Origin: Candidatus Lokiarchaeum ossiferum
GTDB lineage: Archaea; Asgardarchaeota; Lokiarchaeia; Sigyniarchaeales; Promethearchaeaceae
Reading direction: 5' to 3'
Assembly (NCBI GenBank): GCA_025839675.1
Contig: CP104013.1
Location: 4,980,001 to 5,012,000 of the forward strand
DNA length: 32,000 nt
In this document: one piece after another, positions 6,317 through 26,981 of the stretch
Layout of the letters: the number at the start of each line of letters is the position of its first letter
How positions within the stretch are numbered: position 1 is the stretch's first letter
Translations under genes and position numbers: made by a program
The notes under the pieces: model-generated
Databases searched by the model: none
Seen by the model: the letters and a program-made list of their open reading frames with translations, nothing else
Told to the model about the DNA's origin: nothing

Positions 6317-6440
6317 GCTCTATTATCATAATCCTTCTCAAATAATAAAATTATAAGTTTTTCTTTTCCTAATTAAAATTGATTTTTCAATGAAATTCAA
6401 TAGAGCAAATTCTCTGATAAGAGAAAAGTGAATTTTGAGT

Positions 6441-6541
6441 ATGAAATTAGTTAAAATGCTTAAATTTTTATTACATTCCAAAGGATTTAAGAAGAGAAAA
6501 AAAACTCTTATAATAATTCACAAAATGAGAAAAAATTAAAA
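6441..6541 (+). repeat. Intergenic repeat copy A (about 100 bp), direct repeat of 8391..8495
   Basis: The first 60 nt align in register with only a few mismatches (atgaaattagttaaaatgcttaaatttttattacattccaaaggatttaagaagagaaaa vs atggaattagtttaaatccttaaatttttattgcattccaaaggacttcagatgagaaaa). After a short divergent stretch comes aattcacaaaatg(a/t)gaaaaaattaaaa. It ends 47 nt upstream of the beta-helix A start codon. Confidence 0.8.
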
Positions 6542-6587: not shown

Positions 6588-8375
6588 ATGAAAACTTTAA
6601 AAAAGAATCTTCCTATTGCAATAATTTCAATTATCTTCCTTTCCATGGCTATTTTCTGGATGGGAAAGAGCGATAATTTAGAAAATAATTCAATTAAAAT
6701 TAATCCTGCTGAGTTAAAAGATAAATCTCCCAATTTCATTCAAGAAATTCATTCTTCCATTTCAATTCAAGGAAATGATCAATTGGAAATTTTTATTGCA
6801 AATAACGGTTTAAATGGGGAGGGTTCAGCTTCATCACCATATATCATTGAAAATTATATAATTGATGCTACTTCATCTCACGGTATTTCTATACAGAATA
6901 TAACTAAGAATTTAATCATAAGAGAATGCGATATTCAAGATGGTTTTGACAACGGTAAATTTGGAATTTATTTAAGCAATTCAAGTAATATCTTAATTCA
7001 TGACAATCATTTTACCAGCAATTATTATGCCGTGATGCTATTCAAGTCTACTATCATCAATATTACAAACAATGTGATTTCACAAGCGGGAATTTATTTT
7101 AATGATTCTAATGAATGTTCTCTCTCTTATAATGAATTTAATCGCGCGAATTCTGCAACTGGGGGTGTTTGGTTACAAAATTCGGACAATAATTTAATTC
7201 AATTTAATGAAATTAAAGATTTAGAGTATCGTAAAGGCATATGTCTTTTTGATTCTCATTACAATATACTTAATGCAAATAAAATAAGCAATATCTATAT
7301 GGAACACGCGATTGATATCAGAAGATCTCATTCTAATATCATAACTTCAAATCAAATTAATAAATCTGTATGGATTAGTGCTATATATTTGCATGAATCA
7401 CAAAAAGCACATATAGAGAATAATTATATCTACGAAAATGGTGGAATGGGAATTTTACTCTATTATTCTGATTTCTTCAATATAACAGGAAACATCATAC
7501 GGTTCAATCTTGATTCTGGGATTTGTGTTGATCATACAATGGAAAGTTCCCTAACATTTAACTTAGTTACTGATAACGATGGTTTTGGGATTCATTTACT
7601 CTCCTTTATAAATCTTTTTCTTGAAGGTAATGAAGGAATCATCGGGTACGGTGATGATATACCTCCTGAAACAGATCCCATAATTACAAGTGATTCATCC
7701 ACTATTACACCTCCATCTACTTCTACTTCTTCATCTAACACTTCGTCTTCATCTATTTCTCAATCTATTGAAGAAAGTCGTCCCTCATGGGTTGAACTAT
7801 TTCTAATATTCACTACATTTTTTGTGATTTTCATTTTAATTTCACTTGTTTCATCCAAAAAAGACCAAAGCAACGAAAATCTGAATAATCAAGAAGTGGA
7901 AGAATTAGAATATTCCCTAGATAAAACAGTGGAGAATAATAATATGGAAAATTGGGAAATAGAGTCTATTTTTAATGATAATGTCTCTGATTCGCCTATA
8001 ATAGAAGAGCTAGAACCGAGAAATAGGATCGAAACCAAATTATTATCACCGGAACTTGATATCAAAGCAAATATTCAACCTCAAATTTCCTCTGATCATG
8101 AAATCCATATCTCGACTCAAAAGCATCTATTGGGGAATTTTAAAGATATTTTAAATGAAAAAAGAAAAATAGAAATTCCAATCCTAGCGTCTTTATTAAA
8201 TATTAGTGAAAAAGAATTATTGCTAAATCTTGTTTCATGGAGTCGAATCATCCCCTTTAAAATAGAAAATGGCATTATTGAAATGGAAATTCTCTCCAAT
8301 TTCATTGGGCTACTTGATAAACAATTTCAGGATTGGACTAAAAAAGGACCTAATGATAAGAAAATGGAAAAGTGA
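6588..8375 (+). CDS. Membrane-anchored right-handed parallel beta-helix (PbH1/NosD-like) surface protein A with Ser/Thr-rich stalk, TM helix and about 170 aa cytoplasmic tail
   Basis: 595 aa. The N-terminal signal anchor is LPIAIISIIFLSMAIFW. Repeats of the type N-x-I-x-x-N-x-I...GI-x-L fit PbH1 beta-helix turns. The stalk is TSDSSTITPPSTSTSSSNTSSSSISQS and the TM helix is WVELFLIFTTFFVIFILISLVSS, followed by a long charged tail. It is a paralog of 27244..28494. Confidence 0.8.
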   Translation: MKTLKKNLPIAIISIIFLSMAIFWMGKSDNLENNSIKINPAELKDKSPNFIQEIHSSISIQGNDQLEIFIANNGLNGEGSASSPYIIENYIIDATSSHGISIQNITKNLIIRECDIQDGFDNGKFGIYLSNSSNILIHDNHFTSNYYAVMLFKSTIINITNNVISQAGIYFNDSNECSLSYNEFNRANSATGGVWLQNSDNNLIQFNEIKDLEYRKGICLFDSHYNILNANKISNIYMEHAIDIRRSHSNIITSNQINKSVWISAIYLHESQKAHIENNYIYENGGMGILLYYSDFFNITGNIIRFNLDSGICVDHTMESSLTFNLVTDNDGFGIHLLSFINLFLEGNEGIIGYGDDIPPETDPIITSDSSTITPPSTSTSSSNTSSSSISQSIEESRPSWVELFLIFTTFFVIFILISLVSSKKDQSNENLNNQEVEELEYSLDKTVENNNMENWEIESIFNDNVSDSPIIEELEPRNRIETKLLSPELDIKANIQPQISSDHEIHISTQKHLLGNFKDILNEKRKIEIPILASLLNISEKELLLNLVSWSRIIPFKIENGIIEMEILSNFIGLLDKQFQDWTKKGPNDKKMEK

Positions 8376-8390
8376 TGTGTTCTTTTTATT

Positions 8391-8495
8391 ATGGAATTAG
8401 TTTAAATCCTTAAATTTTTATTGCATTCCAAAGGACTTCAGATGAGAAAAAAATATTCGCCTATACTAAATTCACAAAATGTGAAAAAATTAAAA
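8391..8495 (+). repeat. Intergenic repeat copy B (about 105 bp), direct repeat of 6441..6541
   Basis: See copy A. It begins 16 nt after the beta-helix A stop codon, so the two copies bracket that gene. It lies in the largest non-coding gap of the window (8376..8973). Confidence 0.8.
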
Positions 8496-8973: not shown

Positions 8974-9909
8974 ATGAAAATGAAAAAAAGAAATAATATT
9001 GATAAAAATCCTTATGAAAACCCCATTCTAATTAACTTATTTGCGAAATATGATACTTTATGGGAACTATGCCCAAAAAAAGTAATGAGATTCCTTGAAA
9101 AAAAAATAAAACCATATGTAAAAAGAAATATTCAATATTTAGGTGAATTTGGTTATGAGTTGATTGCAGTTATTCCTTTTGCTTACTGGTTACATTTAAA
9201 TGGAAAACTTCTTTCGACAAGAAGTGCAAAGGATACAAAATGTTTGTACTATTTCTCAAAGTATCATGTAGAAATAAATAAAAAGAGGAAGTTTATCAAA
9301 GTTTCAAATTTTCCTCTGAAAGATATCCATATTCCTTCAATAAATACAAGTAAATGGTGTCCTCCCCCATATAAAAAAATTTATAGAAATTCTAAATTCC
9401 TTTGGGGAAAACCAATTTGTGTAATTTGCAATAAATTTACGGAAGAATGGGGCGGGAAACCTATCAATTTTTTATCTATTGAAATTTTGAAAGAAATATT
9501 TGATTTATTGAAATCAAAATATCAAATTATATACAATCGCCCTTTAAGCAAAAATATTGTTGCAGATGATCAAAAAGAAATAAGTTTTCCCGATATGCAA
9601 TTAATAGAAGAAAAATATCCAGATATTCAAACTATACAAGATTTGGCAATTAATAATGAAGATTTATCATTCAACGTTCTTCAAATGATGCTTTATGCAA
9701 ATTGCGATCATTTTATTTCCGTTCAAGGCGGAAGCTCTGTATTTTCAAGCTTTTTTGGAGGTAAAAACATCATTTTTGCAAAAGAAGGAGGAGAATTGAG
9801 GCATAATTCATTTAAGTGGTACAATAAATTTTCAGGATCAACCATTTTCCATTTGAACGATTATTCAAAACTAATTGAAACACTAAAACGAGAGTATTTA
9901 AATGAATGA
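8974..9909 (+). CDS. Uncharacterised protein, possible GT-B-like glycosyltransferase, translationally coupled to glf
   Basis: 311-aa ORF. Its last 8 nt overlap the glf start (9902..9909). GEFGYELIAVIPFAYWL and HFISVQGGSSVFSSFFGGKNIIFAKEGG loosely resemble GT9/GT61-type motifs. No confident family assignment is possible by eye. Confidence 0.5.
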   Translation: MKMKKRNNIDKNPYENPILINLFAKYDTLWELCPKKVMRFLEKKIKPYVKRNIQYLGEFGYELIAVIPFAYWLHLNGKLLSTRSAKDTKCLYYFSKYHVEINKKRKFIKVSNFPLKDIHIPSINTSKWCPPPYKKIYRNSKFLWGKPICVICNKFTEEWGGKPINFLSIEILKEIFDLLKSKYQIIYNRPLSKNIVADDQKEISFPDMQLIEEKYPDIQTIQDLAINNEDLSFNVLQMMLYANCDHFISVQGGSSVFSSFFGGKNIIFAKEGGELRHNSFKWYNKFSGSTIFHLNDYSKLIETLKREYLNE

Positions 9910-11020
9910 TATATTGATTGTAGGTGCAGGTTTCACAGGTTCAGTTTTAGCAGAAAGAATTAGTTCAAAACTGAATAAAAAATTACTTCTAATTGATAGA
10001 AGAGATCATGTTGGAGGAAATAGTTTTGATTATTATAATGATAATGGTGTTTTAATTCATAAATATGGTCCCCATTACTTTAGGACTAATTCTGATAAGG
10101 TTTTTCAATATCTTTCCCAATTTACTAAATGGAGACATGTAGAATATAGGGTACGGACTTCAGTTGATGGAAATCTATATCCAATTCCAATAAATCGGGA
10201 TACAATTAATCAATTTTTTAAGATTCATTTGAAAAACGAGCAACAAACTAAAGAATACCTAAATAGTATTAGAGTAGAAATTGAAAAACCAAAAAATTCC
10301 GAAGAAATTGTTATTTCAAAAGTTGGAAAAGAAATTTATGAAAAATTTTTCAAAAATTATACATTCAAACAATGGAATTTATATCCAAAGGATTTAGATC
10401 CAGAAGTGTGTGCAAGAATTCCGATTAGAATAAATACAGATGATAGGTATTTTACTGATGAAATTCAAGCTATGCCTGTTGATGGCTATCATTCTCTCTT
10501 TAATCGAATGTTGAAAAATCCTAAAATAACTGTTAAATTGAATACAGATTTTAAAGAAATCAAAAATTTAGATGATTTTAAACTTATAATATTTACTGGC
10601 TGCATTGATGAATTCTTTAATTTCAAATTTGGCCGATTACCATATCGTTCCTTAAGATTTGAAATAGAAAATCATCAGCAAGAATTTTATCAAAATTGGA
10701 GTCAAATTAATTATCCTAATGATTTCGATTATACCCGAATTGTCGAGATAAAGCATGTGACTGGTCAAAAAATTCCTAATACTACAATTGTGAAAGAATA
10801 TCCAGAAGCCGAAGGTGATCCTTTTTATCCAATTCCTCGTAAGCAAAATCATGAAATATATAAAAAATATGAGGATGAAGCCAAATCTCTTAAAAAAATA
10901 ATTTTTGTAGGAAGATTAGCCCAATACAAATATCTAAATATGGATCAAGTTGTTGCAAATAGTTTAGAATTATTCGAAAAAATTCTTTTGAAAAAAGAAA
11001 TCTTGGGTAAGGGAAGTTAA
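9902..11020 (+). CDS. glf: UDP-galactopyranose mutase
   Basis: 372 aa. It has the N-terminal FAD fold ILIVGAGFTGSVLAERI, then LLIDRRDHVGGNSFD, HKYGPHYFRTN and the C-terminal FVGRLAQYKYLNMDQVV. All are characteristic of Glf. Confidence 0.92.
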   Translation: MNDILIVGAGFTGSVLAERISSKLNKKLLLIDRRDHVGGNSFDYYNDNGVLIHKYGPHYFRTNSDKVFQYLSQFTKWRHVEYRVRTSVDGNLYPIPINRDTINQFFKIHLKNEQQTKEYLNSIRVEIEKPKNSEEIVISKVGKEIYEKFFKNYTFKQWNLYPKDLDPEVCARIPIRINTDDRYFTDEIQAMPVDGYHSLFNRMLKNPKITVKLNTDFKEIKNLDDFKLIIFTGCIDEFFNFKFGRLPYRSLRFEIENHQQEFYQNWSQINYPNDFDYTRIVEIKHVTGQKIPNTTIVKEYPEAEGDPFYPIPRKQNHEIYKKYEDEAKSLKKIIFVGRLAQYKYLNMDQVVANSLELFEKILLKKEILGKGS

Positions 11021-11021
11021 T

Positions 11022-11996
11022 TTAAGAATGGTTTTGCCAGTCAAAAACATCTTGAATGATATTTAACATATTCTTTTTAGCTTTCCAGTCAAGCAATTTT
11101 TCTGCTTTGTCGGGATTAGCAACAAGAATTGCAGGATCTCCAAGTCTTTCTTTGCAAAAATTTATTCTAATATTCTTCTTTGAAACCTCTTCAATAATTC
11201 TTATGATTTCTAAAATACTATTTCCTTTACCAGTTCCCAAATTGAAATAATTTGACTTTTTTGTTTTTTTAAGATATTCAAGCGCTTTCAAGTGCCCTTC
11301 TGCGAGATCTAAAACATGAATATAATCACGTATGCACGTTCCATCTTTAGTAGAATAAGAATTACCAAATACATTGATTTCCTTAGTTTTTTCGAATACT
11401 ACATCAAAAATTAGCGGGATTAAATGGGTTTCTGGATCATGTAATTCTCCGATTCCATATGCTGCTCCTGCTGCATTAAAATATCTCATTGAAATTGATT
11501 TGATTCCATAAATTTGATCATACCAGTGAAGATATCTCTCAAATATTAACTTACTTTCTCCATATGGATTAATGGGTTTTTTTACAGATTCTTCATCTAT
11601 TGGTAGATATTCAGGTTGTCCATAAATCGCGCATGATGATGAAAAAACAATTTTGTTGCATGAATGTTTTCTCATTGATTCCAGCAAATTTAATCCACCA
11701 TTTACATTATTATTGAAGTATAAACTTGGGTTTTTCATGCTTTCTCCAACATAAGCATAAGCCGCAAAATGTAAAACAGATTCAATTTCATTCTTAATGA
11801 AAACTTCTTCTATTGCATCTACATTGAGAAGATCTCCCTTAATAATTTGAATTCCTTCTGGGAGTGATTCTCGATGACCATATTTTAAATTATCAAAAAC
11901 AATTAACTGATCAAGTGAGTAACCATTTTTAAGAAAGTAATGAATTGTATGGCTACCGATATATCCCGCACCGCCTGTAAAAAGTATTTTCTTCAT
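11022..11996 (-). CDS. galE: UDP-glucose 4-epimerase (SDR family)
   Basis: 324 aa. It has KILFTGGAGYIGSHT (Rossmann GxxGxxG), SSSCAIYG, the YGESK catalytic YxxxK, and the RYFNAAGA and DGTCIRDYIHVLDLA blocks typical of GalE. Confidence 0.9.
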   Translation of the reverse strand: MKKILFTGGAGYIGSHTIHYFLKNGYSLDQLIVFDNLKYGHRESLPEGIQIIKGDLLNVDAIEEVFIKNEIESVLHFAAYAYVGESMKNPSLYFNNNVNGGLNLLESMRKHSCNKIVFSSSCAIYGQPEYLPIDEESVKKPINPYGESKLIFERYLHWYDQIYGIKSISMRYFNAAGAAYGIGELHDPETHLIPLIFDVVFEKTKEINVFGNSYSTKDGTCIRDYIHVLDLAEGHLKALEYLKKTKKSNYFNLGTGKGNSILEIIRIIEEVSKKNIRINFCKERLGDPAILVANPDKAEKLLDWKAKKNMLNIIQDVFDWQNHS

Positions 11997-12168: not shown

Positions 12169-13395
12169 CTAAGAAGAATGTTTTTTATTAATCAATTTTT
12201 GAATCTCATTAATTCGCTTTTCATAACTCCTTGAAATTGCTTCAAAACTGTGATATTTTTTAATATCTTCTTGTGCTTTGATTTGTAATTTATTTCTATA
12301 ATTTTTATCATAAAACAATTTCCTCATGTAAGAAGTTGCTTCAGATAAGTCTGGATCTGCCCAAACCATCCCTTGTTTATAGTGGAGGTATTCTCCCTTC
12401 TTTAATTCAATTAGTTTGTAAGGAACCAAACAAGAATTATCTGCATTCATAAAATCAACATTGCCGGAATAATTGGTGCCAATGACATTTTTTCCCATAT
12501 ACATGGCTTCCGCTAATCCCAATCCAAACCCTTCGGACCGATGGAGTGATACATAAACATCGCAAGAGTTGATTAGGCCGAGCATTTTCTCACGTTCCAA
12601 AACTTCATCAATGGTATATATATTATTAGCATTAAAACTGTTAATAAATTCATTAAAATCTATTTCTTGTTTTAAATCATTTTTAATTTTTTGGAGTTTT
12701 ATTACCAAACCAACTTTTTCTGAATCATTGTCTGAAAAAGCATTTTTGAAACACTGAATCACTGCTTCTGGATTTTTTCTAGTTATATATGAGGACATAT
12801 CGAAGCTAAAGAGAAATAGAAATTTATTTTTAGGCAGATTAAAATCTTTTCTGGATATATGATGGGGAATTTGGAATTCCACCGGAATTGGCATATGGAA
12901 TACGGGAAGATTCGTACTGTGTTTCATTGTGTCATAAATAAATTTGGAGGGCGCCCAAACTTCATCGAGATACTTAAACTGTTTTGTAAAAATTTTTGGT
13001 AAAGTTGATAATTCCCAATAGCCGTACCCAATATTATATTGAGATTTAATAATTTCGTTTAATCTTCTTGTCATGTAAAGCCAAACTTGGGTTCCATTCA
13101 TACAAAAAAGATTGATATTGTATTTATTTTCCTTTGAAATAAAATTTTTAACTTCATTATTTGAATGTGAATGTTGAATCGCTAGATCTGATTCATTAAC
13201 ACAAAAATTTACTGTTAATTTTGTAAATGCATTAGTTACTAATCGAATATGTTGCCCAATTCCAAAATCTCCATTTGGAAATCCGATTAGATTAACACCA
13301 TCATTCTTTTTTAGATTTTTAAATCGTTTCAATAAATTATAGAAATTAACCAAGAAGAATACGTAAATCAGATAAAAAAATTCCTTAATTTTCAT
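12169..13395 (-). CDS. GT4-family (group 1) glycosyltransferase, paralog P1
   Basis: 408 aa. It has GVNLIGFPNGDFGIGQHIR near the N-terminus and the EX7E motif in HRSEGFGLGLAEAMYMGKNVIGTNYSGN. It is a close paralog of 14731..15963 and 17885..19144. Confidence 0.8.
   Translation of the reverse strand: MKIKEFFYLIYVFFLVNFYNLLKRFKNLKKNDGVNLIGFPNGDFGIGQHIRLVTNAFTKLTVNFCVNESDLAIQHSHSNNEVKNFISKENKYNINLFCMNGTQVWLYMTRRLNEIIKSQYNIGYGYWELSTLPKIFTKQFKYLDEVWAPSKFIYDTMKHSTNLPVFHMPIPVEFQIPHHISRKDFNLPKNKFLFLFSFDMSSYITRKNPEAVIQCFKNAFSDNDSEKVGLVIKLQKIKNDLKQEIDFNEFINSFNANNIYTIDEVLEREKMLGLINSCDVYVSLHRSEGFGLGLAEAMYMGKNVIGTNYSGNVDFMNADNSCLVPYKLIELKKGEYLHYKQGMVWADPDLSEATSYMRKLFYDKNYRNKLQIKAQEDIKKYHSFEAISRSYEKRINEIQKLINKKHSS
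12409..12522 (-). repeat. 114-nt arm of a perfect inverted repeat (partner 15628..15741), inside GT4 paralog P1
   Basis: The reverse complement of 12409..12522 is identical base for base to 15628..15741 (ttgggattagcggaagccatgtatatgggaaaaaatgtcattggcaccaattattccggcaatgttgattttatgaatgcagataattcttgtttggttccttacaaactaatt). Confidence 0.9.
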
Positions 13396-13565
13396 AAAGT
13401 AATTATTTGTTGCCTAAATTTTAATTTTATGGTATATAGGAAGCTTTACAGCATAATCCTCATTAATTTTAGATGTAAAGATGTATAAATGAATTATTTT
13501 CAGTTTTACTTGTTCAAAAAAACTCGAATAGTAATATCAATTTGAAGTAAAAGTCTTCCTTTTCT

Positions 13566-14636
13566 TTACAATTCAATCTTAATATTTTTACAGTATATCT
13601 TTAATATTTTTAATAAGATTGCATTTTCTTGCTCTAAATCAATGAATTTTTCCATATATTTTGTTGCATTAGATGCAATTTTTTTACATTTCTTATCGTT
13701 AGACACGCACCATTTATATATTTCTTCCAGATTATCTAATTTATCATTTAATGGAACATAATGAACATACGGTTTCAATTTTCCTTCCATCAACCAACTT
13801 TCTACAGAAGGTTTTGGCATTAAAACAAGGGAATTAGAATATAGCCCCCATTTCAAATTTGTTGCAACATCATTTCCTTCAATGCTAATAATATATTTAT
13901 ACTGAAGCTGTTCTTTAATAGACATAAATCCTTTAACATTTTTGCTCAGATGTTGTTGTTCTTGGCATATTTCATTAAATCCTATATTAAAAACAAGATA
14001 ATTGTCACATTTTTTTTTAAGAAAAGAACTAAAATATGAAATTAATTTCAATGGGATCATTCGGCTTATACAAGCAATTATTCGATTTAATTTAAAAAAA
14101 CTTTTTTTTAAGAGTCTGAATTTGTCAGATATAAAATATTTGTCCATATAGGTCCTAACTAAACGATATCTTGGATTATTTTCACCATATCCTGTTGTAA
14201 TTCCTCGCCAAACAATTCTGCTACTTTTTTCATCCCATGAAACATCATTTTGGTTTATATCATCAAAAAAAAGCCAATGTCGAAAAATATTAAGTTTGAA
14301 AACAATTGAATTATCTTTCATTTTATCGGGTGATGATGAAAGGGTTCTATATTTCATTATCACAGGTAAATCTGGAAAATGAGATGAAATATCTCCAAAT
14401 TGAACAATAAATTTATTGTTTTTGTTCGGAATTGACAGTAAGTTCAAAATTCTTTGAAAATCTTTGATATAAGGAATACTGTGATATTTTTTAAAAATAT
14501 GATCATTGTATAGGACAGTTAAATCGTTCCAATGTGGTAAAGTTTCTGAAAATTTTTCAACCTGTCTGCGATCAATAACAAGGTCTGTATTCCACCATTT
14601 TCCCATATAATATTGAACTCTTTCATCAATATTCAT
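13566..14636 (-). CDS. GT90 / CAP10-domain glycosyltransferase-like protein (POGLUT/KDELC/Cap10-type)
   Basis: 356 aa. WRGITTG... and the C-terminal block YKYIISIEGNDVATNLKWGLYSNSLVLMPKPSVESWLMEGKLKPYVHYVPLNDKLDNLEEIYKWCVSNDKKCKKIASNATKYM follow the Glyco_transf_90 pattern. Compare human POGLUT1 [74 protein letters not shown]. Confidence 0.65.
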   Translation of the reverse strand: MNIDERVQYYMGKWWNTDLVIDRRQVEKFSETLPHWNDLTVLYNDHIFKKYHSIPYIKDFQRILNLLSIPNKNNKFIVQFGDISSHFPDLPVIMKYRTLSSSPDKMKDNSIVFKLNIFRHWLFFDDINQNDVSWDEKSSRIVWRGITTGYGENNPRYRLVRTYMDKYFISDKFRLLKKSFFKLNRIIACISRMIPLKLISYFSSFLKKKCDNYLVFNIGFNEICQEQQHLSKNVKGFMSIKEQLQYKYIISIEGNDVATNLKWGLYSNSLVLMPKPSVESWLMEGKLKPYVHYVPLNDKLDNLEEIYKWCVSNDKKCKKIASNATKYMEKFIDLEQENAILLKILKIYCKNIKIEL

Positions 14637-14730
14637 AATAAATTGAATTATAGAATAAATAATAAATTTTTGAAATCAATTGACATTTGTTTCAAAAAAA
14701 TATTATTATTTGAATATTTCAGATTACTTG

Positions 14731-15963
14731 ATGTTAATAAAATCTATGAAAAATTTCTTGTATACGTATTTTTATTATAAACCCTACAGTTATTTGAAAT
14801 ATTACTATTACAAATTAAAAAAAAATCGAAGAAATGATAAGAAACTATTAGGGGTTAACATAGTTGGTCTTCCAAAAGGAGATTTTGGAATGGGGGAACA
14901 TATTCGATTAGTTTCTCATTCATTTGAAAAAACTAACCTGAATTTCATAGTAAATGATACGAAACTTGAGTATAATAATCCTAATAATAATAATAATATA
15001 GATTATTTAATATCTCATGAAAATCTATATGATATAAATTTAATTTGCCTTAATGCACCTCGATTAATAACGTATATAACAATCACAGTAAACGATTTCG
15101 TAAAAACTCAATATAATATTGGGTACGGTTATTGGGAACTTCCAATATTGCCAAAAAAATACCTCAAGCAATTTAAGTATCTCGATGAGGTTTGGGCCCC
15201 CTCCAAATTTATTTATGATACAATGAAACAAAGTACGGATCTTCCCGTGTATCATATGCCAATTCCCGTGGAATTCGATATTCCTCATCATATTTCCAGA
15301 AAAGATTTTAATCTGCCTGAAAATAAATTTCTATTTCTCTTTAGCTTCGATATGGGTTCCAGTGTGATTAGAAAAAATCCCGAAGCTGTAATCCAGTCAT
15401 TTAAAAAAGCTTTTAATAATAAAAACATCAATGATGTCGGTTTGATAATCAAATTTCAAAGAATGAAGGGTATTAAAAGATTTGATGAATCCTATCACAG
15501 TCTCATGCTTCATACAAATGCACCTAATATATATATTGTTGATGAATTATTGGATCGCGAAAAAATGTTAGGTTTAATTAATTGTTGCGATGTATATATA
15601 TCGTTACATCGTTCAGAAGGGTTTGGTTTGGGATTAGCGGAAGCCATGTATATGGGAAAAAATGTCATTGGCACCAATTATTCCGGCAATGTTGATTTTA
15701 TGAATGCAGATAATTCTTGTTTGGTTCCTTACAAACTAATTCCAGTGGAAAAAAATCAATATCCCTATGTTGAAAAAGGATCAGTATGGGCTGAACCAGA
15801 ACTGGATGCGGCTGCAAAATTTATGCTTAAATTATACAATGATAAAGACTTTAGGGAAAAACAAGCTAAAAACGCATTTGATCATATGCGAAAGTTCTAC
15901 AGTTTCAATGCAATTGGCAAGAAATATGAAGAACGTATAGTTAAGATAAAAAATAATGGATAA
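14731..15963 (+). CDS. GT4-family glycosyltransferase, paralog P2
   Basis: The ORF track opens at a TTG at 14680. Alignment with the paralog N-termini (MLIKSMKNFLYT vs MKLKDFKNLIYT) favours the ATG at 14731. It has GVNIVGLPKGDFGMGEHIR and HRSEGFGLGLAEAMYMGKNVIGTNYSGN (EX7E). Confidence 0.8.
   Translation: MLIKSMKNFLYTYFYYKPYSYLKYYYYKLKKNRRNDKKLLGVNIVGLPKGDFGMGEHIRLVSHSFEKTNLNFIVNDTKLEYNNPNNNNNIDYLISHENLYDINLICLNAPRLITYITITVNDFVKTQYNIGYGYWELPILPKKYLKQFKYLDEVWAPSKFIYDTMKQSTDLPVYHMPIPVEFDIPHHISRKDFNLPENKFLFLFSFDMGSSVIRKNPEAVIQSFKKAFNNKNINDVGLIIKFQRMKGIKRFDESYHSLMLHTNAPNIYIVDELLDREKMLGLINCCDVYISLHRSEGFGLGLAEAMYMGKNVIGTNYSGNVDFMNADNSCLVPYKLIPVEKNQYPYVEKGSVWAEPELDAAAKFMLKLYNDKDFREKQAKNAFDHMRKFYSFNAIGKKYEERIVKIKNNG
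15628..15741 (+). repeat. 114-nt arm of a perfect inverted repeat (partner 12409..12522), inside GT4 paralog P2
   Basis: Identical to the reverse complement of 12409..12522. Allowing one mismatch, the identity extends back to 15616. Confidence 0.9.
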
Positions 15964-15966
15964 ATG

Positions 15967-16728
15967 TTATTTCATAGTGTCTAAATAATGCTTAATTCCA
16001 AGAGAAGGATCTTCTTCAAACATTGTTAAATGTCCGTGATCCATGACTCCAACTTTAGTTGCTAATTTTTTGACCATATTCATGTCATGGGTCACCAATA
16101 TTATTGCAGAACGTTCCTTATATCTATTAATTGCTTGATAACATTTTGCGCGAAATTTTTCATCACCTACTGCTAAAACCTCGTCTATTAGTAAAATATC
16201 TGGTTCCATTTGGTATGATATGGCAAAACCTAATCGAATATACATCCCGGAAGAGTAATGTTTAACTGGTGTGTCGATGAAATCCCCAATGTCCGCAAAT
16301 TCAATGATTTCATTATATTTTGCATCAATTGTTTTTTTCGACATTCCAAGTATTGCTCCGTTCACATAAATATTTTCACTTCCTGTTAAATCTGGGTGGA
16401 ATCCTGCGCCTACTCCGATCAAAGCACCCATTTCACCTCTGTATTTAATGGTTCCTTTATCGGGGGTGTAGATTCCATTCAATATTTGAAGAAGTGTTGT
16501 TTTCCCTGATCCATTATGACCAATAAGTGCCAATGTTTCTCCCTTTTTAAGTTGGAAAGATACATTGCTTACAGACCAAAATTCATCTTTTCTCAATTTC
16601 TCAGAATGTGTTTTTAATCCAAAGATTTTCCTCAATACATCTTTCATTGTATAAACCATCGATTTGGAAAGTGTTTTACAAAATTTCTTTGAAACATTAT
16701 TTACTTGAAATACAACATTTTCATCCAT
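15967..16728 (-). CDS. wzt: Polysaccharide/teichoic-acid type ABC exporter ATP-binding protein (Wzt/TagH/KpsT-like), short form without C-terminal carbohydrate-binding domain
   Basis: 253 aa. It has Walker A GHNGSGKTTLLQIL, the signature variant YSSGMYIRLGFA typical of Wzt/TagH, Walker B ILLIDEVLAVGD and an H-loop VTHD. The ATG directly abuts the permease stop codon. Confidence 0.9.
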   Translation of the reverse strand: MDENVVFQVNNVSKKFCKTLSKSMVYTMKDVLRKIFGLKTHSEKLRKDEFWSVSNVSFQLKKGETLALIGHNGSGKTTLLQILNGIYTPDKGTIKYRGEMGALIGVGAGFHPDLTGSENIYVNGAILGMSKKTIDAKYNEIIEFADIGDFIDTPVKHYSSGMYIRLGFAISYQMEPDILLIDEVLAVGDEKFRAKCYQAINRYKERSAIILVTHDMNMVKKLATKVGVMDHGHLTMFEEDPSLGIKHYLDTMK

Positions 16729-17583
16729 TTATAATATCTCCTTTATCCGTTTCTCAGTAACATGGAAAGCCGTTAATAAAATCCAAAAACAAACAATAGA
16801 AAATACAACGGTGATAAAATATTCCGTAGTAAGTGATGATGAAGAAAATAATATTAAATCCCTTGGGAATGAAATCAAATAATAGACTGGGTTAATAGTT
16901 GATAAAAATTTAATTATACCTGTTTCAGGCACAATATAAAGGACTGGGGTAATTAACATTAAAAAGGGAAGAATTGCAGTAAGTATTGATGCAACATCGT
17001 GCGCAATTGTATTAAAAATTGCAAATATTAGTCCAAAACCCGTTGAAAGAAATATGATCGGAATTATAAAAACAATTGATGCCAAAAGAGCAACTATATT
17101 TGGTACATAGCCATAAATTAATAGCAATATGACAACTAAGAGAGTTTGAGTGAAGAAAGTGATGACAGAATATCCAATTGATGAGAAAACTATAGGTTTT
17201 AACGAGAAATTTATTTTTTTAATCATTCCCCCCGTACTAATGATGGAATATGTACATGCCATTATTGATGAGGAGAATAATTGCCAGTAAGCCATTCCCA
17301 AAGTGGCATAAATCGGATAAGGGACTTCACTTACTCCAGAAATGAATATTCCAGATTCATTCAAAAAAACAAATGTTAAAACATTCAAAATTGGAAATAT
17401 AAATGCCCATAAAAACCCTAGAAAGGATTGTTTATGAATAGAAAGGAAATTTCTTTTAATAAATTGAGCAGTAAGCCATTTATTTTTTTTTAAATCATCA
17501 ATTATTTCCTTTTGTGTTTCAAAAATGCTTAAATGAGTCAGATCTTTCGGTTTAATTACAGTTATATTACCTTTATCCTCCAT
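16729..17583 (-). CDS. wzm: ABC-2 type polysaccharide exporter permease (Wzm/TagG-like)
   Basis: 284 aa, about 6 hydrophobic helices. The N-terminal cytoplasmic segment has KWLTAQFIKRNFLSIHKQSFLGFLWAFIFP, which is typical of ABC-2 permeases. It lies immediately upstream of and contiguous with the ATPase gene. Confidence 0.85.
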   Translation of the reverse strand: MEDKGNITVIKPKDLTHLSIFETQKEIIDDLKKNKWLTAQFIKRNFLSIHKQSFLGFLWAFIFPILNVLTFVFLNESGIFISGVSEVPYPIYATLGMAYWQLFSSSIMACTYSIISTGGMIKKINFSLKPIVFSSIGYSVITFFTQTLLVVILLLIYGYVPNIVALLASIVFIIPIIFLSTGFGLIFAIFNTIAHDVASILTAILPFLMLITPVLYIVPETGIIKFLSTINPVYYLISFPRDLILFSSSSLTTEYFITVVFSIVCFWILLTAFHVTEKRIKEIL

Positions 17584-17884
17584 ATATTAACCCTAAATTA
17601 TTTATAAAAGAAAAATTTTTCTTTATTCCTTTTACTTTTTTAATATCTAAATTGGAAATAAACCATTTTCATAAATTTAATTGATTCAATCATTAATCAT
17701 TGGAGTAATCAATAATTGATCATTGAATTGGTAAGATTTTTTTCTTGGTTTTTCGAGAACGTTATCTTCTAGATTTTCATTAAATGATTGTTCTTACATG
17801 CGTTTCAAAAAACCAAATTCACCGGTAGATCATATAAAACTTGAAAGAAAAAAGTTAAGAAAGAAATTACGTTCTTTCTTTTAT

Positions 17885-19144
17885 ATGAAGTTAAAAGATT
17901 TTAAGAATCTCATATACACATTTGGTTATTATTATCCGTATCGTTTCTTTACTATTAAAATTCCAGTTCAATTTCATGAATTTAAAAAGAGATTAAAAAA
18001 AAAAAAAAATGAGTTTGGTGTTAATATTATTGGTTATCCAAAAGGCGATTTTGGAATAGGACAACACATGAGACTTGTGACTCAAGCATTTATAAGAAGT
18101 AATTTGCAATTTTCAGTTATAAATTCCATTTTACCCGGCCAAACTCACACTGATAATACATTAACTTCTTTTATTACAGATAGAGGTAAATACTCCATTA
18201 ATTTATTTTGTATGAATGCTCCACAATTAGTCGAATTACGAACAAACATAAAAAACGATATTCACACATCCCAGTATAATATTGGTTATGGCTATTGGGA
18301 ATTGTCAATTTTCCCAAGATCTTTTAGAAAACAATTTAAATATCTTGATGAAATATGGGCACCTTCAAAATTTATTTATAATGCAATTAAAAAAACTACA
18401 AATAAACCTGTATACTATATGCCTATTCCTGTAGATTTTTCAATTCCCAGTCAAATTTCTCGAAAAACCTTCAATTTACCTGCAGATAAATTTCTCTTTA
18501 TTTTTAGCTTTGATATGTCATCATATATTGATAGAAAAAATCCTAGTGCAATCATTAGATGCTTTATTGAAGCATTTGATGAAAAAAATTCTGAGAACGT
18601 AGGGTTAGTTATTAAGTGTCATCGTTTAAAGGGAAATTTAGACCAAGAAAATGCATTAAATAATCTCATTTCGCAACGAAAAAATAATATTTATATTATT
18701 GATGAATTATTAGACCGCGAAAATATGCTCGGCCTAATCAATTGTTGTGATGTGTATGTATCACTCCATCGGTCCGAAGGGTTTGGATTGGGATTAGCGG
18801 AAGCTATGTTCATGGGAAAAAATGTAATTGGAACCAATTACTCAGGGAATTGTGATTTTATGAAAGATGATAATTCATGTTTAGTTCCATATACTTTGAT
18901 TCCTGTCGAAAAGGGGCAATATCCCTATTCCGATAAAAATTCTGTTTGGGCTGAACCTGATTTGGATGTAGCAATAAAATATATGCAATTACTATACAAT
19001 GATGTCATTTATAGAAAGAAATTGTCAAAGAATGCTCAAGAGTATATTAAGAAATATCATAGTTTCGCAGCAATTGCAAAGAAATATGAACTGCATATTA
19101 ATCAAACCAAATCAAAACTTAAAGAAAAAATACAAAAGTCTTAA
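17885..19144 (+). CDS. GT4-family glycosyltransferase, paralog P3
   Basis: The ORF track opens at 17798. Paralog alignment favours the ATG at 17885 (MKLKDFKNLIYTF). It has GVNIIGYPKGDFGIGQHMR and HRSEGFGLGLAEAMFMGKNVIGTNYSGN (EX7E). Confidence 0.8.
   Translation: MKLKDFKNLIYTFGYYYPYRFFTIKIPVQFHEFKKRLKKKKNEFGVNIIGYPKGDFGIGQHMRLVTQAFIRSNLQFSVINSILPGQTHTDNTLTSFITDRGKYSINLFCMNAPQLVELRTNIKNDIHTSQYNIGYGYWELSIFPRSFRKQFKYLDEIWAPSKFIYNAIKKTTNKPVYYMPIPVDFSIPSQISRKTFNLPADKFLFIFSFDMSSYIDRKNPSAIIRCFIEAFDEKNSENVGLVIKCHRLKGNLDQENALNNLISQRKNNIYIIDELLDRENMLGLINCCDVYVSLHRSEGFGLGLAEAMFMGKNVIGTNYSGNCDFMKDDNSCLVPYTLIPVEKGQYPYSDKNSVWAEPDLDVAIKYMQLLYNDVIYRKKLSKNAQEYIKKYHSFAAIAKKYELHINQTKSKLKEKIQKS
17995..18009 (+). 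repeat. Homopolymeric A15 tract inside the 5' part of GT4 paralog P3 (codons L-K-K-K-K-N)
   Basis: Counted directly: a x6 at 17995..18000 plus a x9 at 18001..18009. It is the longest homopolymer I found in the window. The paralog P2 has only A9 at the equivalent position (14817..14825). Confidence 0.9.
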
Positions 19145-21838: not shown

Positions 21839-23274
21839 CAGTTCCCAATGAAATATCCATTTTTACATTTTTATGCCCCATCATTAACTTATTGACTAAA
21901 TATTTGAGTTATAGGTTGATTGAATCAGAAAATTCATCGATGAGCCAATCTCGATATTCTTGGAATGTTATGGCTTTATTGGAGTCTAATTCACCTCGTT
22001 CGATTTGCCAAAAATTGAAGAGCAAATATTTCCCAATTTCCGCAAATAATCGTATTCCATCATAATTCGACCGCCATATCCCTTTATGATCATCTACATC
22101 TCTAAAAGCGGTCTCAATTTGCCATTTCATTTTATAATACCGCTTGATGGTATATACGAATGATTTTGAATGGAATTGAGGGGCAATTGTGGTGATCAAT
22201 GCATAAATTTGCTCTGATGCATCAGTCAAACTTAAATTATTTTGGCGATAGGCATTTTTAATTGCTGCTAAGGATTGATTTCCACGGGCAAACAGGAGTA
22301 CCCAACATCGCATTTTTTGCGTTATACCCCTTTTTTTGCTTTTGTTCCTATCTCGTATTGTTGAGTGCGCCCCTTTTTTTGATCTAAGTAATGCCGCTTG
22401 CAATTTTTTAATTGCGAATAGTCCTTTGCGGGTGTGATAACATCAACATTGCAAATTTTGAAAGATTTGAGCACATTATGTCGATAATATTCCCGATCTA
22501 CAACACAGACTTTGATATTTAATCCAAGTTCTAAAAGCCAATCAGTAATCTGAAGCATAAAGGGAATTTTTGATTCCCCTTTGGCGACGTAGTGGCATCC
22601 AATAAATAATGATTTCTTGCTGCCATGGATCATAGCTCCATGATAATGACAAATACGTCTTGTACCTTTAACCATTTTACTTCCTTTGATTAATGGATCC
22701 CATCTTCGTCCCCAATAACCAAGATAGGTTAAATCAAACTCTAAAACAAAATTAGTTTTTCGTGCCTCGGCAAGAAATATAAGATGTATCATCTTTTCAA
22801 ACACCAATTTATAGATTTTTTCTACTGATACCAAGGTTTGGTCTCTTAGCCAGTCATTTATAGTCGTTTGGTGAGGAAATGCACGCGATTGGCGTCCATC
22901 TAAAAAAATTTGGGGTGTAAATCCAGAATATTTCATTGCTCAACGGTTCAACTTTTCAGATGCATGATGGATGGAGACTCCACGAATCCAACCATAATAG
23001 AGAATTGCAATGATGTCATCCAATACCCATTTCCGTCCGATGAGAGTTGTCGGAAGACCAAGAGCATATCTGACTGACTTAGCAAGATTTTTGAAGAAAG
23101 AAATCTTATTAAAATTAGGATAACGTGTTCTAAATTGGGGAATTTGGTGCACGGCTTGAGTGCATTGGTTCATACGATTACTCAAGCATCCTTTTATTTT
23201 GAGTGCATTGATGCAAATACTAGATAAATTATTTATGGTCAATTACGATATTTTTGTCGAATCAGTTGGAACTG
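21839..23274 (-). mobile_element. IS4/ISH-like insertion sequence (about 1.44 kb), apparently decayed
   Basis: It contains a fragmented DDE transposase. The tentative terminal inverted repeats are CAGTTCC at 21839..21845 and its complement at 23268..23274, with 11 of the first 13 nt matching. Both ends are flanked by ATAAAA (21833..21838 and 23275..23280), a possible 6-bp target duplication. That match is only weak evidence in AT-rich DNA. Confidence 0.6.
21909..23242 (-). pseudogene. DDE transposase (IS4-type, DDE_Tnp_1-like) broken into three ORFs
   Basis: The 100-aa ORF (TTG start) ends at an in-frame TGA (22940..22942). Only one codon separates it from the 204-aa ORF in the same frame. 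The 204-aa and 164-aa ORFs overlap over 22322..22403, with the downstream part in the -1 frame. DDE-type blocks are present: FVLEFDLTYLGYWG, CVVDREYY and YYKMKWQIETAFRDVDD (the Y-x2-R/K-x3-E motif of the IS4 family). Confidence 0.75.
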
Positions 23275-23300: not shown

Positions 23301-26300
23301 TTAGTATGTGAGATATGGAATATCCAGATTAACTACCCTCAAAATATCTTCATAATACGGAATTCCTGTTTCTTGGTAAATTTTTAATTGAATTGCTTTA
23401 AAAATGGGATATATATTTATGTAGTAGAGATTCCCCATACCGATTGGTTGAGTAATAATGAACGGAACTTCTTCATCGTATGAATTTGAATAAGAAGCTA
23501 AGATTGAAGCATTTGCTGGTGTAACACTTAATAGAATCAATTCGATTTCATACAAAAGATCAATAGATTCAGTTTCACCTATCAGCTTATTAGATGCACT
23601 CGTACTAAATGACATTTCTATCATTTCTTTAGCGAATGCATTATATCCATTTGAGTTAAAAATGATTAAGTCTCCTCCATTCTCGATATAATCATAATAA
23701 TCTTCGATGTTTCTACTGGATTTAACTGCATAAAATGCTTCAAAATCTCGAAGATCAAAATTGACAATAAAACTAGTGGAATAGGTCGTGTATTGGATTC
23801 CAAAAACATTCGAATTTGAAGTATTATTGTTTGTTGCATGAAAATTATTTAGCGAAAAATCTATTCCTTGTTCATTTATTGATATATCTACAATTAGATG
23901 ATCCCTTAATTTCCAATTTATGCTTGTATTAACGCCCGGCCATGTTTGAGGTAATATTTGATCTCCAACAATGAAATAATAATGAATAAAACCCGAAGGT
24001 GAAAATAAGTACACTATTTTGTTGAAACTCATGTCATCATTCTGGGAAAAAACAAACTCTAGGTAATTATTTACATTTTTATCCATATCTGCTATTGAAA
24101 TTTGAAACCTGGCAGTTAAATTGGAAATGGGATAAGGACACATTAAAGTTCCACTTGAAACATATGGATCTTTAGAATAAGAGTTAATATTGAACTCAGT
24201 TGCTGTTTGAAAATCAAAATTTCCTCCACAACTTTCCCATTCATAAAAGGATGGGGTAATATTCAAAGAATCATCATTTAGGGGGTCGAAAGCTAAAAAT
24301 AATTTATCATAATCAAACAAAGATCCATCTAAATCATTGATTGTCGAGAAATTTCTATATGCTTGGCTGAATAGATTCATATTTTGGACTTTTTGGGAAA
24401 AAGGAAGATAATTATCCTGAGGAAAAACTATTTTCAAATCACTATTCGATTGAGGTGGTGAAATTTTCGGAATGCGGTAAATGGTGTAATCTTCTTCACT
24501 ATAAACTTTATGGAAAATATTTAACATCTCTTTGAAATAATCATGGTATCGCTCGTTGATTTTAGAAACATTTCCTTGGGTTAAATATAAATAGGAATTT
24601 TCAAATCCTTCATTTTTCATGGTATATTGCTGTAAAAATATGCTCTCTGTGAGTGTATTGTAAGAAAGTTTTTCTCCAAGAACTAAATTTAACACTATGC
24701 GTGAATTTGATTCAGATTTATTAATCATTTGATAAGTGAATTCATCCAGTGTAATAATATAAGCTGAATTATCTTCTTCAAGAAGAGTTCTAATTGCATT
24801 TATTCCCATTTTGTCCTCATCCCATAAAACCGGTAAGTATTGTTTGGCATTTTCCCCATTTCGATAACTATATTCTAACCCAAATAACACTGTTGAATAA
24901 TTGGATATCAAGAGAAAGAATAGAACGAGATATTTGTATAACGATCTGAAATGTATTTCGTTTAATTGTAGATTTTTTAATTTGTGTTTGTCAAAATGTA
25001 TCAAACCATAATAAATCCCTGTAGCAATAAATGGAATGATTATAAACACTCCCAATCTTCTCTCAAAATAGTAGATTGGTCCGGTTAATATATGTAATCG
25101 AACATAAGTTAGCACAATTCCAAAACCCATACAGAAGATACCAAAAATCAGTAAGAAATTATATTTAAAATCAATATTTTTATTTTTAACACTAAAATAC
25201 AGATATAGTAATCCAAATAATCCATAAAATCCCAGTCTAACCGGATGGAAAAACCAAAGAACTTGTCCTGATTCTAAGAAATTCTCTATGCTTAGTGATT
25301 CAGAATCCCAAACAAAAGTCCAGTACACTAACCCGCTGATAAGTAATAGCAAAGCAAATAAAATTAAGATTTTGACTACCTTATGCCATCTTTCATGGGG
25401 AAAATATCGATTATCTGCTGGTGATTTTTCAATTCTGATTAAATAATTTGTTAATCTTGTGTTAGTGATCTTTTCCTTATTCCTTACAATAAATTTCCAT
25501 CCAAGATGAATAATCATAGTTAGAATTAGAAAAGCCAAGGTAACATATAGTAAATAGAAGTAAAGAGGAAAAATCCACTCTTCTATTGCTTTTGACAAAT
25601 AATTATATAATTTATAAAATATTATGATGCTTATATAGGAAAGAATCATAGAAAACAATGTTTCGGTTGATTTGATCCCTTTCCCTTTAAAGAAAAATAA
25701 GAATACTCCCAAAAATATTCCAAAAATGGTAGCTTCAGCCACATGGGATAGGAACATTCCAACTTGCATAATTGTCAATAATGGAATAAATAATTTCCCG
25801 GGAATTGAATCAATCTGAATTAATGTCATAATTCCAAACAAAATAATAAATGATGGAATAATGGGTGTGTAGTAAGATGGAGAAAATCCATAATATAATG
25901 AGTTTAATGTTTGGGAATTTGCGAGATTCAAAGCATTAGAAAAAGGAAGCTGATTGATTAACCTAAGTTTAATGAAATATATCCATCCAAGTCCTCCCGT
26001 TGCACCAAGCATGTAAGCCCAAGTCGCAAGAATTGGAATTCTTTTATCAATTTTATTAAAGAAACGTTTCATCGCAGTATAGAAGACAATGGGTAAGATA
26101 TAATTTATTAATAACAAAGTAGTCTGATTCACTACTATTGAACCGTTAGATAAAAAGATAAATGCTGATTCATGTGAATGGGCCACTGTATAGAACCAAG
26201 AATAATATTGAAGAAAATAATCATTTATTGATTCTCCAAATAGCACACTATATGAATAATGGCGATATATGTCAGGAGAAATTGAATAGACAATTTGCGG

Positions 26301-26981
26301 GTAGAGAAGTAAACTTGAAAAAATATACATCATATAAATTATCGCAAAACCCATCCAATCATTTTTAGAGGCAAAAGATTCAATTTTTGGATAAGAAATT
26401 TCTTTGTTCGTGAATAGAATGGTTCCTCCAACTAAAATCAATAATAAAACCAAGAAAATAGTATTTCTGTTCGCTATTTTTGATATAACTAATATAAACC
26501 ATAGAATGGCTGTAAAAATATAACTTGTGATAAATGAAAACGCTATCATTTCTATTCTGGAAAATTTTGTTCTTATTTTTGTAATTGCAAGAATACAATA
26601 TCCGGGTAGAAAAGAAGTGTTAAGTAATGCAATAATGGAAGAAAGAAATCCCAGATTTATTGTTAATATTGATAAAATTACTTGAATTGTTGGCAAAGAA
26701 CACAAGAATACATTTTTGAGTATTTTTGAATTAAATTTTCCAACAATCTTCTTAAATTGGAGCAGTGATATTGGAATATTCACATCATTCAAAATAATGT
26801 ACAGGAATAGTAAAGTAATAAAAGTGATAAATAGAAAGGGGATCTTGATCCATGTGGGGATAAGCCATAAGAAATAGGCCGAAAGAAGTGTAAAAGGGAC
26901 GCAGAATACAAGAATTGCTTTAAATTTTTTTGATTTAAAAAAATTCCTTATATTTTCTTCATTTTTTTTTTTAATTTCCAT
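23301..26981 (-). CDS. Giant polytopic membrane protein B (1226 aa), paralog of 1484..5224. Candidate GT-C-like transferase (function inferred)
   Basis: Long uninterrupted ORF starting at an ATG. It has a multi-TM N-terminal half sharing conserved blocks with protein A, and a large soluble C-terminal half with NGGDLIIFN and GMGNLYYINIYPIF (A has NGGDLIVLN and GLGTISYLNLVPF). It has no C-terminal TM helix and no WWDYG motif. Confidence 0.6.
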   Translation of the reverse strand: MEIKKKNEENIRNFFKSKKFKAILVFCVPFTLLSAYFLWLIPTWIKIPFLFITFITLLFLYIILNDVNIPISLLQFKKIVGKFNSKILKNVFLCSLPTIQVILSILTINLGFLSSIIALLNTSFLPGYCILAITKIRTKFSRIEMIAFSFITSYIFTAILWFILVISKIANRNTIFLVLLLILVGGTILFTNKEISYPKIESFASKNDWMGFAIIYMMYIFSSLLLYPQIVYSISPDIYRHYSYSVLFGESINDYFLQYYSWFYTVAHSHESAFIFLSNGSIVVNQTTLLLINYILPIVFYTAMKRFFNKIDKRIPILATWAYMLGATGGLGWIYFIKLRLINQLPFSNALNLANSQTLNSLYYGFSPSYYTPIIPSFIILFGIMTLIQIDSIPGKLFIPLLTIMQVGMFLSHVAEATIFGIFLGVFLFFFKGKGIKSTETLFSMILSYISIIIFYKLYNYLSKAIEEWIFPLYFYLLYVTLAFLILTMIIHLGWKFIVRNKEKITNTRLTNYLIRIEKSPADNRYFPHERWHKVVKILILFALLLLISGLVYWTFVWDSESLSIENFLESGQVLWFFHPVRLGFYGLFGLLYLYFSVKNKNIDFKYNFLLIFGIFCMGFGIVLTYVRLHILTGPIYYFERRLGVFIIIPFIATGIYYGLIHFDKHKLKNLQLNEIHFRSLYKYLVLFFLLISNYSTVLFGLEYSYRNGENAKQYLPVLWDEDKMGINAIRTLLEEDNSAYIITLDEFTYQMINKSESNSRIVLNLVLGEKLSYNTLTESIFLQQYTMKNEGFENSYLYLTQGNVSKINERYHDYFKEMLNIFHKVYSEEDYTIYRIPKISPPQSNSDLKIVFPQDNYLPFSQKVQNMNLFSQAYRNFSTINDLDGSLFDYDKLFLAFDPLNDDSLNITPSFYEWESCGGNFDFQTATEFNINSYSKDPYVSSGTLMCPYPISNLTARFQISIADMDKNVNNYLEFVFSQNDDMSFNKIVYLFSPSGFIHYYFIVGDQILPQTWPGVNTSINWKLRDHLIVDISINEQGIDFSLNNFHATNNNTSNSNVFGIQYTTYSTSFIVNFDLRDFEAFYAVKSSRNIEDYYDYIENGGDLIIFNSNGYNAFAKEMIEMSFSTSASNKLIGETESIDLLYEIELILLSVTPANASILASYSNSYDEEVPFIITQPIGMGNLYYINIYPIFKAIQLKIYQETGIPYYEDILRVVNLDIPYLTY

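Follow-up and report, generated by a model that had tools for sequence, protein, structure and literature searches.

In this study, we examine three glycosyltransferase genes of family GT4, here called P1, P2 and P3, in the chromosome of the Asgard archaeon Candidatus Lokiarchaeum ossiferum, and we consider that they are very probably old paralogs of a glycan cluster between which conserved blocks have repeatedly been copied without crossover. The stretch analysed, hereafter the window, is 32,000 nucleotides (nt) long (contig CP104013.1, positions 4,980,001 to 5,012,000), and coordinates are those of the window unless a position is given as nt of P1. The mosaic identity of the three genes is confirmed. 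Gene conversion between P1 and P2 is well supported by synonymous identity, permutation tests and a switch of tree topology, and a conversion tract between P1 and P3 is suggestive. An earlier note, made from the letters of this DNA alone, had described three GT4 paralogs that had recently undergone conversion. The three open reading frames (ORFs) are present, and each matches PF00534 (Glycos_transf_1) at 40.5-42.5 bits against a cutoff of 26.4; no NCBIfam equivalog reached its cutoff for P1-P3. Pairwise identity is 57-60% at the protein level and 65-69% at the nucleotide level.

12169..13395, minus strand: P1, GT4 glycosyltransferase of 408 amino acids (aa), the mosaic gene (ORF and PF00534 match)
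14731..15963, plus strand: P2, GT4 paralog of 410 aa, divergent from the GT90 gene and P1 (ORF and PF00534 match)
17885..19144, plus strand: P3, GT4 paralog of 419 aa (ORF and PF00534 match)

The tracts shared by these genes are as follows.

12409..12522, minus strand: P1 arm of the 114-nt perfect inverted repeat (P1 nt 874-987, aa 292-329)
15628..15741, plus strand: P2 arm of the same repeat, identical to the P1 arm at 114/114 positions
12506..12585, minus strand: P1 side of the P1/P3 tract (P1 nt 811-890), exact over 12506..12555
18725..18804, plus strand: P3 side of the P1/P3 tract, exact over 18755..18804
12769..12966, minus strand: P1 side of block B (P1 nt 430-627, aa 144-209)
15184..15381, plus strand: P2 side of block B

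The reverse complement of 12409..12522 is 15628..15741, and the inverted identity reported in the earlier note is thus complete; it is the maximal exact match of P1 and P2, the next longest being 35 nt. At the identity typical of the block (~82%), an exact run of 114 nt would arise by chance with p ~1.5e-10. The 50-mer shared by P1 and P3 occurs exactly twice, at 18755..18804 (+) and 12506..12555 (-), within a similarity that reaches 80 nt (12506..12585 vs 18725..18804) with 4 mismatches, and P2 is 86% identical to P1 over the 50-mer. This match had been placed immediately 5′ of the 114-nt block. It is exact, but it is not strictly 5′, since the two overlap by 17 nt in which P1, P2 and P3 are all identical. 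The second block of P1/P2 similarity is also real, although the partner assigned to 12786..13030 (15116..15360) was four nt out of register; aligned with 15120..15364, the two segments are identical at 208/245 positions (84.9%), and the core of ~200 nt, block B, is 87.9% identical. Identity falls to 52-75% in the flanks of the tracts.

The comparison relies on relatives from other genomes. L004 and L005 are two contigs of one ENA sample (the ERZ relative), both at ~3.8x coverage; L004 carries the ortholog of P1 (73% nt identity), and L005 carries a syntenic stretch of wzt-wzm, the ortholog of P3 and a GT4 gene (76-80% nt identity). L001, a Joint Genome Institute (JGI) metagenome contig, carries six domain copies of the P-family, four of which are fused pairwise into proteins of 843 aa and 815 aa. 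Among the family copies compared, exact runs between genomes are at most 29 nt long, and those within genomes reach 114 and 50 nt in the window, 44 nt in L001 and 36 nt in the ERZ relative (L004/L005).

Synonymous and non-synonymous rates were estimated by segment according to Nei and Gojobori. Over the 114-nt tract, P1 and P2 differ at none of 23.7 synonymous sites, whereas the proportion of differing synonymous sites (pS) is 0.40-0.61 in every other pair, the orthologous pairs P1-L004 and P3-L005 included. Because the same codons vary at 40-61% of synonymous sites in those pairs, the identity of the tract exceeds what protein constraint would produce. In block B, P1 and P2 are separated by a synonymous distance (dS) of 0.38, other pairs lying between 0.9 and saturation, and at P1 nt 811-873 the dS of P1 and P3 is 0.23, against saturation. 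Among the codons that specify the same amino acid in P1 and P2, 35 in succession are identical (permutation p = 5e-5). In a GENECONV-type permutation test on 623 polymorphic sites in five sequences, the P1/P2 fragment 874-984 has a global p of 1e-4. The recent P1/P2 conversion that the earlier note had read from the letters is therefore upheld by the synonymous identity, by this global test and by the switch of topology relative to the orthologs.

The nearest neighbour of P1 changes along the gene as follows.

P1 nt 100-339: L004, identity 0.76
P1 nt 430-627: P2, identity 0.88 (L004 0.73)
P1 nt 628-810: L004, identity 0.70
P1 nt 811-873: P3, identity 0.94 (L004 0.76)
P1 nt 874-987: P2, identity 1.00 (L004 0.82)

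Neighbor-joining trees follow the same changes. In the N-terminal segment, P1 groups with L004 (bootstrap 99%) and P3 with L005 (100%), and the pair (P1, P2) has 0%. Because copies from different genomes interleave in this tree, the paralog lineages predate these organisms. In block B, the values are reversed, with 100% for (P1, P2) and 0% for (P1, L004). In the C block (P1 nt 811-987), both orthologous pairs are lost: (P1, L004) has 0%, and (P3, L005), which has 93-100% outside this block, has 3%. The clusters that replace them are (P1, P2) with 95%, (P1, P2, P3) with 77%, (L004, L005) with 84% and the six L001 copies with 81%. Grouping by genome is accordingly seen in the window and two to three genomes besides. 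On third positions alone, the C block still gives 94% for (P1, P2) and 55% for (L004, L005). Judged from these sequences, the window clearly shows concerted evolution of the catalytic block within a genome; for the ERZ relative it is probable, and for L001 no more than suggestive. The L001 catalytic blocks have lineage-specific residues in common (GMAEAMKMGK..TAYSGNM).

The converted blocks and their proposed history

The blocks that were converted coincide with the core of the enzyme. The AlphaFold2 model of P1 has a predicted local distance difference test score (pLDDT) of 82.8 and a predicted template modelling score (pTM) of 0.81, and it shows the two Rossmann domains of the GT-B fold. In a Foldseek search with this model, the top PDB matches are GT4 enzymes, namely 3oy2 (E = 1e-16), BshA, MshA and PimA. 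From sequence and model, P1, P2 and P3 are predicted to be retaining GT4 glycosyltransferases of the GT-B fold. The EX7E motif of P1 is E288-GFGLGLA-E296, and both glutamates are invariant in 17 family members. Block B (aa 144-209) spans the last strands of the N-domain, the interdomain linker and the first strand of the C-domain; block C (aa 271-329) spans the invariant EX7E segment, SLHRSEGFGLG..AEAM, and the next strands. The 114-nt tract begins at Leu292 within the motif, so that E296 lies in the tract and E288 outside it, and it continues through the following C-domain strands. No other stretches of the gene are as conserved as blocks B and C, which lie on the conserved GT-B core of the P1 model. 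This conservation fits an initiation of recombination that depends on homology, with tracts that end where divergence rises.

The history that we propose begins with a single GT4 family in which the old lineages of P1, P2 and P3 had already separated before the related organisms split off. Homologous recombination between them would have started repeatedly in the conserved blocks B and C, probably by a RadA-type pathway, and its resolution without crossover would have copied tracts of ~50-200 nt from paralog to paralog; divergence of the flanks would have set the limits of these tracts. At least three events of different age appear to be recorded, in block B between P1 and P2 (dS 0.38), at P1 nt 811-890 between P1 and P3 (dS ~0.2) and at P1 nt 874-987 between P1 and P2 (dS 0). 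Block B would be an older or patchy conversion tract and the 114-nt tract the most recent one. P1 may have been the recipient, because it alone matches two partners in abutting tracts, which share 17 nt of three-way identity, and a single repair event with a template switch is possible. As a result, the catalytic block would evolve in concert within the genome, and the N-terminal (acceptor-side) domain, the middle and the C-terminal tail would diverge independently.

The C-terminal tails were compared separately. The tail of P1 (12169..12408, nt 988-1227) differs from that of L004 at a non-synonymous distance (dN) of 0.35 with a bootstrap of 19%, and the tails of P3 and L005 have a dN of 0.18 with 100%. 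Rapid evolution or an earlier exchange could account for the weak orthology of the P1 tail.

The converted tracts are also distinguished by their base composition. The G+C content at third codon positions (GC3) is as follows.

Tract B: converted partners 0.33/0.33, other copies 0.14-0.24
Tract C1: converted partners 0.48/0.43, other copies 0.10-0.38
Tract C114: converted partners 0.34/0.34, other copies 0.21-0.37

In P1, local G+C peaks of 0.42-0.49 coincide with the converted tracts. The rise in GC3 was noted at 12460-12594 and 12865-12954 and in the corresponding tracts of P2 and P3; the window as a whole has 29.2% G+C. GC-biased gene conversion is known in bacteria (PMC4450053). When changes in the converted pairs were polarised by hand under a majority rule, 33 were weak-to-strong (W->S) and 6 strong-to-weak (S->W). 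We do not claim a conversion bias from these counts, because the control, for which singleton changes were counted in the block B of non-converted genes, shows the same skew (25 W->S vs 6 S->W) and majority-rule polarisation is itself biased in an AT-rich alignment. The raised GC3 of the tracts could result from GC-biased conversion, or GC-richer stretches could recombine better in a genome of 29% G+C.

Competing explanations

The alternative that survives best, which we nevertheless regard as improbable, is that the 114-nt repeat (or the 50-nt one) acts as a working recombination switch, in which a reciprocal crossover flips 3.1 kb (or 6.2 kb) in either direction, time and again, within the population. 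Two glycosyltransferases would then trade their C-terminal tails of ~80 aa and their downstream context, the surface glycan would be diversified, and the perfect identity would be kept up by crossover traffic. Part of this proposal, which the earlier note had advanced as a possible variation mechanism, is geometrically sound. The reading frames of both genes agree across the repeat, and when 12523-15627 is inverted in simulation, two uninterrupted chimeric ORFs result, one with the head of P2 and the tail of P1 and one with the head of P1 and the tail of P2; a simulated inversion of 12556-18754 at the 50-nt repeat of P1 and P3 likewise leaves the chimeric ORFs uninterrupted. A perfect identity of 114 nt is long enough for homologous recombination, the minimal efficient processing segments of E. 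coli being ~25-50 nt, and the locus encodes surface-glycan functions.

However, the step from this geometry to a variation mechanism is not supported. Among the window ORFs of at least 80 aa, searches with Pfam and NCBIfam found no recombinase or invertase domain, and only the split fragments of a DDE transposase at 21909-22936 appeared. No chimeric P1/P2 protein is present between 68% and 100% identity in a collection of 5.8 billion proteins, an exact search of metagenome contigs with a 60-nt core of the block returned 0 matches, and no second arrangement of the locus was found in the public collections searched. An inversion would also leave each head with its own promoter, which is not the behaviour of an on/off switch. 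Comparison with L004 gives no indication that the tails were exchanged in the past: the proportion of non-synonymous differences (pN) is 0.28 between the L004 and P1 tails and 0.375 between the L004 and P2 tails. Because the L004 tail is nearer to that of P1, the history appears to be one of conversion and not of crossover. We consider the tracts to be the product of an ordinary recombination process and their action as a switch unlikely. An infrequent flip of 3.1 kb or 6.2 kb that needs no recombinase, with exchange of the glycosyltransferase tails and heterogeneity of the surface glycan, is to be given an equally small chance; if it were true, such heterogeneity would occur in an Asgard archaeon with a single-membrane envelope and complex surface structures. 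The other rearrangement envisaged in the earlier note, a crossover between P2 and P3 that would delete the exporter between them, has a weak basis, in that their longest exact match is 17 nt, inside a 300-nt stretch of 79% identity. On these sequences, the deletion is improbable, and it would probably be harmful.

We also considered whether two similar paralog segments were homogenised in the assembly, either by short-read polishing with Pilon or by consensus collapse. The genome of 'Ca. Lokiarchaeum ossiferum' Loki-B35 (6,035,313 bp) was assembled with Flye from raw R9.4.1 Oxford Nanopore Technologies (ONT) reads and polished in four Pilon rounds with 150-bp paired reads (PMC9834061), a procedure that gives this explanation its footing. 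We nonetheless find it very unlikely. The non-converted homologs differ by ~18% in the block, which is too much for mis-mapping of 150-bp reads, and the sharply divergent flanks of the tracts anchor the reads. The same clustering by genome recurs in independent assemblies that other projects produced, in L004/L005 (84% bootstrap, with the 36-nt exact run) and also in L001. Furthermore, block B is 88% and not 100% identical, which polishing would not give.

The least credible explanation is that no recombination took place and that purifying selection on the catalytic motif together with codon bias, or a functional element embedded at the nucleotide level, preserved the tract. Conservation of the protein does peak here, since the tract takes in some of the invariant EX7E motif and invariant residues beside it. 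In every other pair, however, that of P1 and its ortholog included, 40-61% of the synonymous sites in these codons differ, and the (P1, P2) cluster persists on third positions. A known embedded RNA is ruled out, Rfam having returned no match in the window.

Several observations weigh against the history of repeated conversion or narrow it. The recent P1/P3 conversion claimed in the earlier note stands in part, in that the synonymous distance is low and the fragment 844-885 has a pairwise p of 0.001, but it fails the test corrected for multiple comparisons (global p 0.17). The trees were built by neighbor joining with bootstrap on 177-333 sites. The L001 clade falls to 12% on third positions, its clustering therefore coming mostly from non-synonymous positions, and the by-genome clustering of these copies could stem partly from shared selection. 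Because P2 is without an ortholog and homogenisation of the C block extends to all comparator genomes, the reading of P1 as recipient is tentative. Finally, a few positions of the perfect identity, at most, could have been tidied by Pilon polishing.

The glycan cluster and its relatives

The three genes lie in a locus that, from its gene content, is an archaeal surface-glycan cluster of the ABC-exporter type; the framing as a bacterial O-antigen cluster is not directly applicable, the host being an archaeon. The neighbours named in the earlier note, a GT90 gene between P1 and P2 and wzm/wzt between P2 and P3, are borne out by Pfam matches, and further GT2/GT4 genes belong to the same cluster. 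Within the window, no initiating phosphoglycosyl transferase, chain terminator or lipid carrier was identified.

9902..11020, plus strand: UDP-galactopyranose mutase, glf (PF03275, E = 3e-74)
11022..11996, minus strand: NAD-dependent epimerase/dehydratase (PF01370, E = 2e-55)
13566..14636, minus strand: GT90-family glycosyltransferase (PF05686, E = 1.6e-17), between the inverted P1/P2 repeats, where a crossover would flip it
15967..16728, minus strand: Wzt-like ABC ATPase (PF00005), between the direct repeats P2 and P3
16729..17583, minus strand: Wzm-like ABC-2 permease (PF01061), between the direct repeats P2 and P3

The permease and ATPase pair (15967..17583) is flanked by GT4 genes, and the same module occurs in L002 and L005, the pair being syntenic with L005 at ~80% nt identity. 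In the Cytophagaceae metagenome-assembled genome GCA_035484095.1 (L002/L003, 1-5388), wzm-wzt is followed by three tandem P-family copies and an epimerase. L006 has two copies of the family. In L001, the two fused two-domain proteins lie at 1345-3876 and 7497-9944 and are accompanied by two single-domain genes. The closest named relatives of the P-family are bacterial (47-51%). The whole glycan module may have been transferred between Bacteria and Lokiarchaeia, as this distribution of sequences suggests. In the 5.8-billion-protein collection, no relative of P2 is closer than its own paralog P1 (60%). P1 alone found no match in the genome-contig collection, and the best match to the family alignment there is just 47% identical; a strain-level comparator is absent from the genome-contig collection scanned. 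The flanks of L004 have no counterpart in the window and were set aside as uninformative about an inversion.

Outside the glycosyltransferase genes, the window contains several paired elements. The glycosyltransferase cluster lies between two genes for NosD/right-handed beta-helix proteins, at 6588..8375 (+) and 27244..28494 (-); their products, probably surface proteins, are distantly paralogous, with 30% identity over ~200 aa. The first of these genes is bracketed by a 71-nt direct repeat (6433..6503 and 8383..8453), 87% identical and with a 27-nt core in which one base differs; a third copy is absent from the window, and 0 are expected by chance. The giant ORFs at 1484..5224 (-; 1246 aa) and 23301..26981 (-; 1226 aa) are rich in hydrophobic segments towards the N-terminus, have a mutual identity of 24.5% and lack a Pfam match; from their sequence, a role as GT-C-like glycan polymerases or transferases is possible. 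Outside the window, the closest homolog (42%), that of the 1226-aa membrane ORF, is found in a second genome labelled 'Ca. L. ossiferum', beside NosD/beta-helix and sugar genes. A DDE transposase at 21909..22936 (-), perhaps extending to 23242, is split into overlapping ORFs of 164, 204 and 100 aa and reads as a remnant of an insertion sequence, or a frameshifted one, at the edge of the glycan cluster.

In that second genome (6.27 Mb), the homologous giant ORF sits in a glycan locus of different composition (L087, CP163304.1 5343392-5367057), and no P-family gene of this genome is among the best 120 matches. We rejected this locus as evidence of an alternative orientation, since it is a different glycan locus with ~65% nt identity in only two short patches. 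By this comparison, the glycan island appears hypervariable between Lokiarchaeum genomes.

Relation to known systems and significance

The inversely oriented duplicates tufA and tufB of Salmonella evolve in concert through RecA-dependent gene conversion (PMC5485169). As in that pair, non-reciprocal copying between the paralogs of one genome would keep P1-P3 similar without rearrangement of the chromosome. The tuf genes, however, are homogenised over their whole length and are ~99% identical, whereas in P1-P3 only two conserved core blocks are homogenised and the remainder is ~60% identical. The host also differs, in that RadA instead of RecA is expected in an archaeon. In Helicobacter pylori, recombination of the paralogous fucosyltransferase genes futA and futB diversifies the Lewis antigens of the lipopolysaccharide (LPS) (PMC2583950). 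The likeness is that paralogs of a surface-glycan glycosyltransferase swap segments within one genome (PMC2583950). The futA/futB variants were observed among single-colony isolates and tied to glycan phenotypes, whereas P1-P3 carry a fixed historical footprint.

The mosaic genes share other features with two further systems. The hsdS specificity genes of phase-variable Type I restriction systems, such as pneumococcal SpnIII/ivr, are shuffled at inverted repeats. Here too, inverted repeats lie inside paralogous ORFs, and inversion at them would exchange segments that code for domains and give intact chimeric genes. The hsdS loci, however, encode a tyrosine recombinase of their own, and sequencing reads readily show both orientations; in this window no recombinase was found, and in the public collections searched no second orientation. 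Some polysaccharide clusters that depend on an ABC transporter have several GT4 genes, as in E. coli O9a (WbdA/B/C with Wzm/Wzt) and in the galactan cluster of Klebsiella (with Glf). The present locus resembles them in placing Wzm/Wzt-like exporter genes beside several GT4 genes and glf, and the two-domain fusions of L001 resemble WbdA, the likeness being one of architecture. Unlike the hosts of those clusters, the present one is an archaeon without LPS.

P1-P3 are a new example of a known process and reveal no new mechanism. The case indicates that, in a cultured Asgard archaeon, chromosomal paralogs undergo ectopic homologous recombination and that, in this GT4 family, the catalytic core can evolve in concert while the remainder of the protein diverges. 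Gene trees of Asgard paralogs can therefore mislead block by block, and the pattern bears on how glycosyltransferase specificity may be divided between the conserved and the diverging parts of the enzyme.

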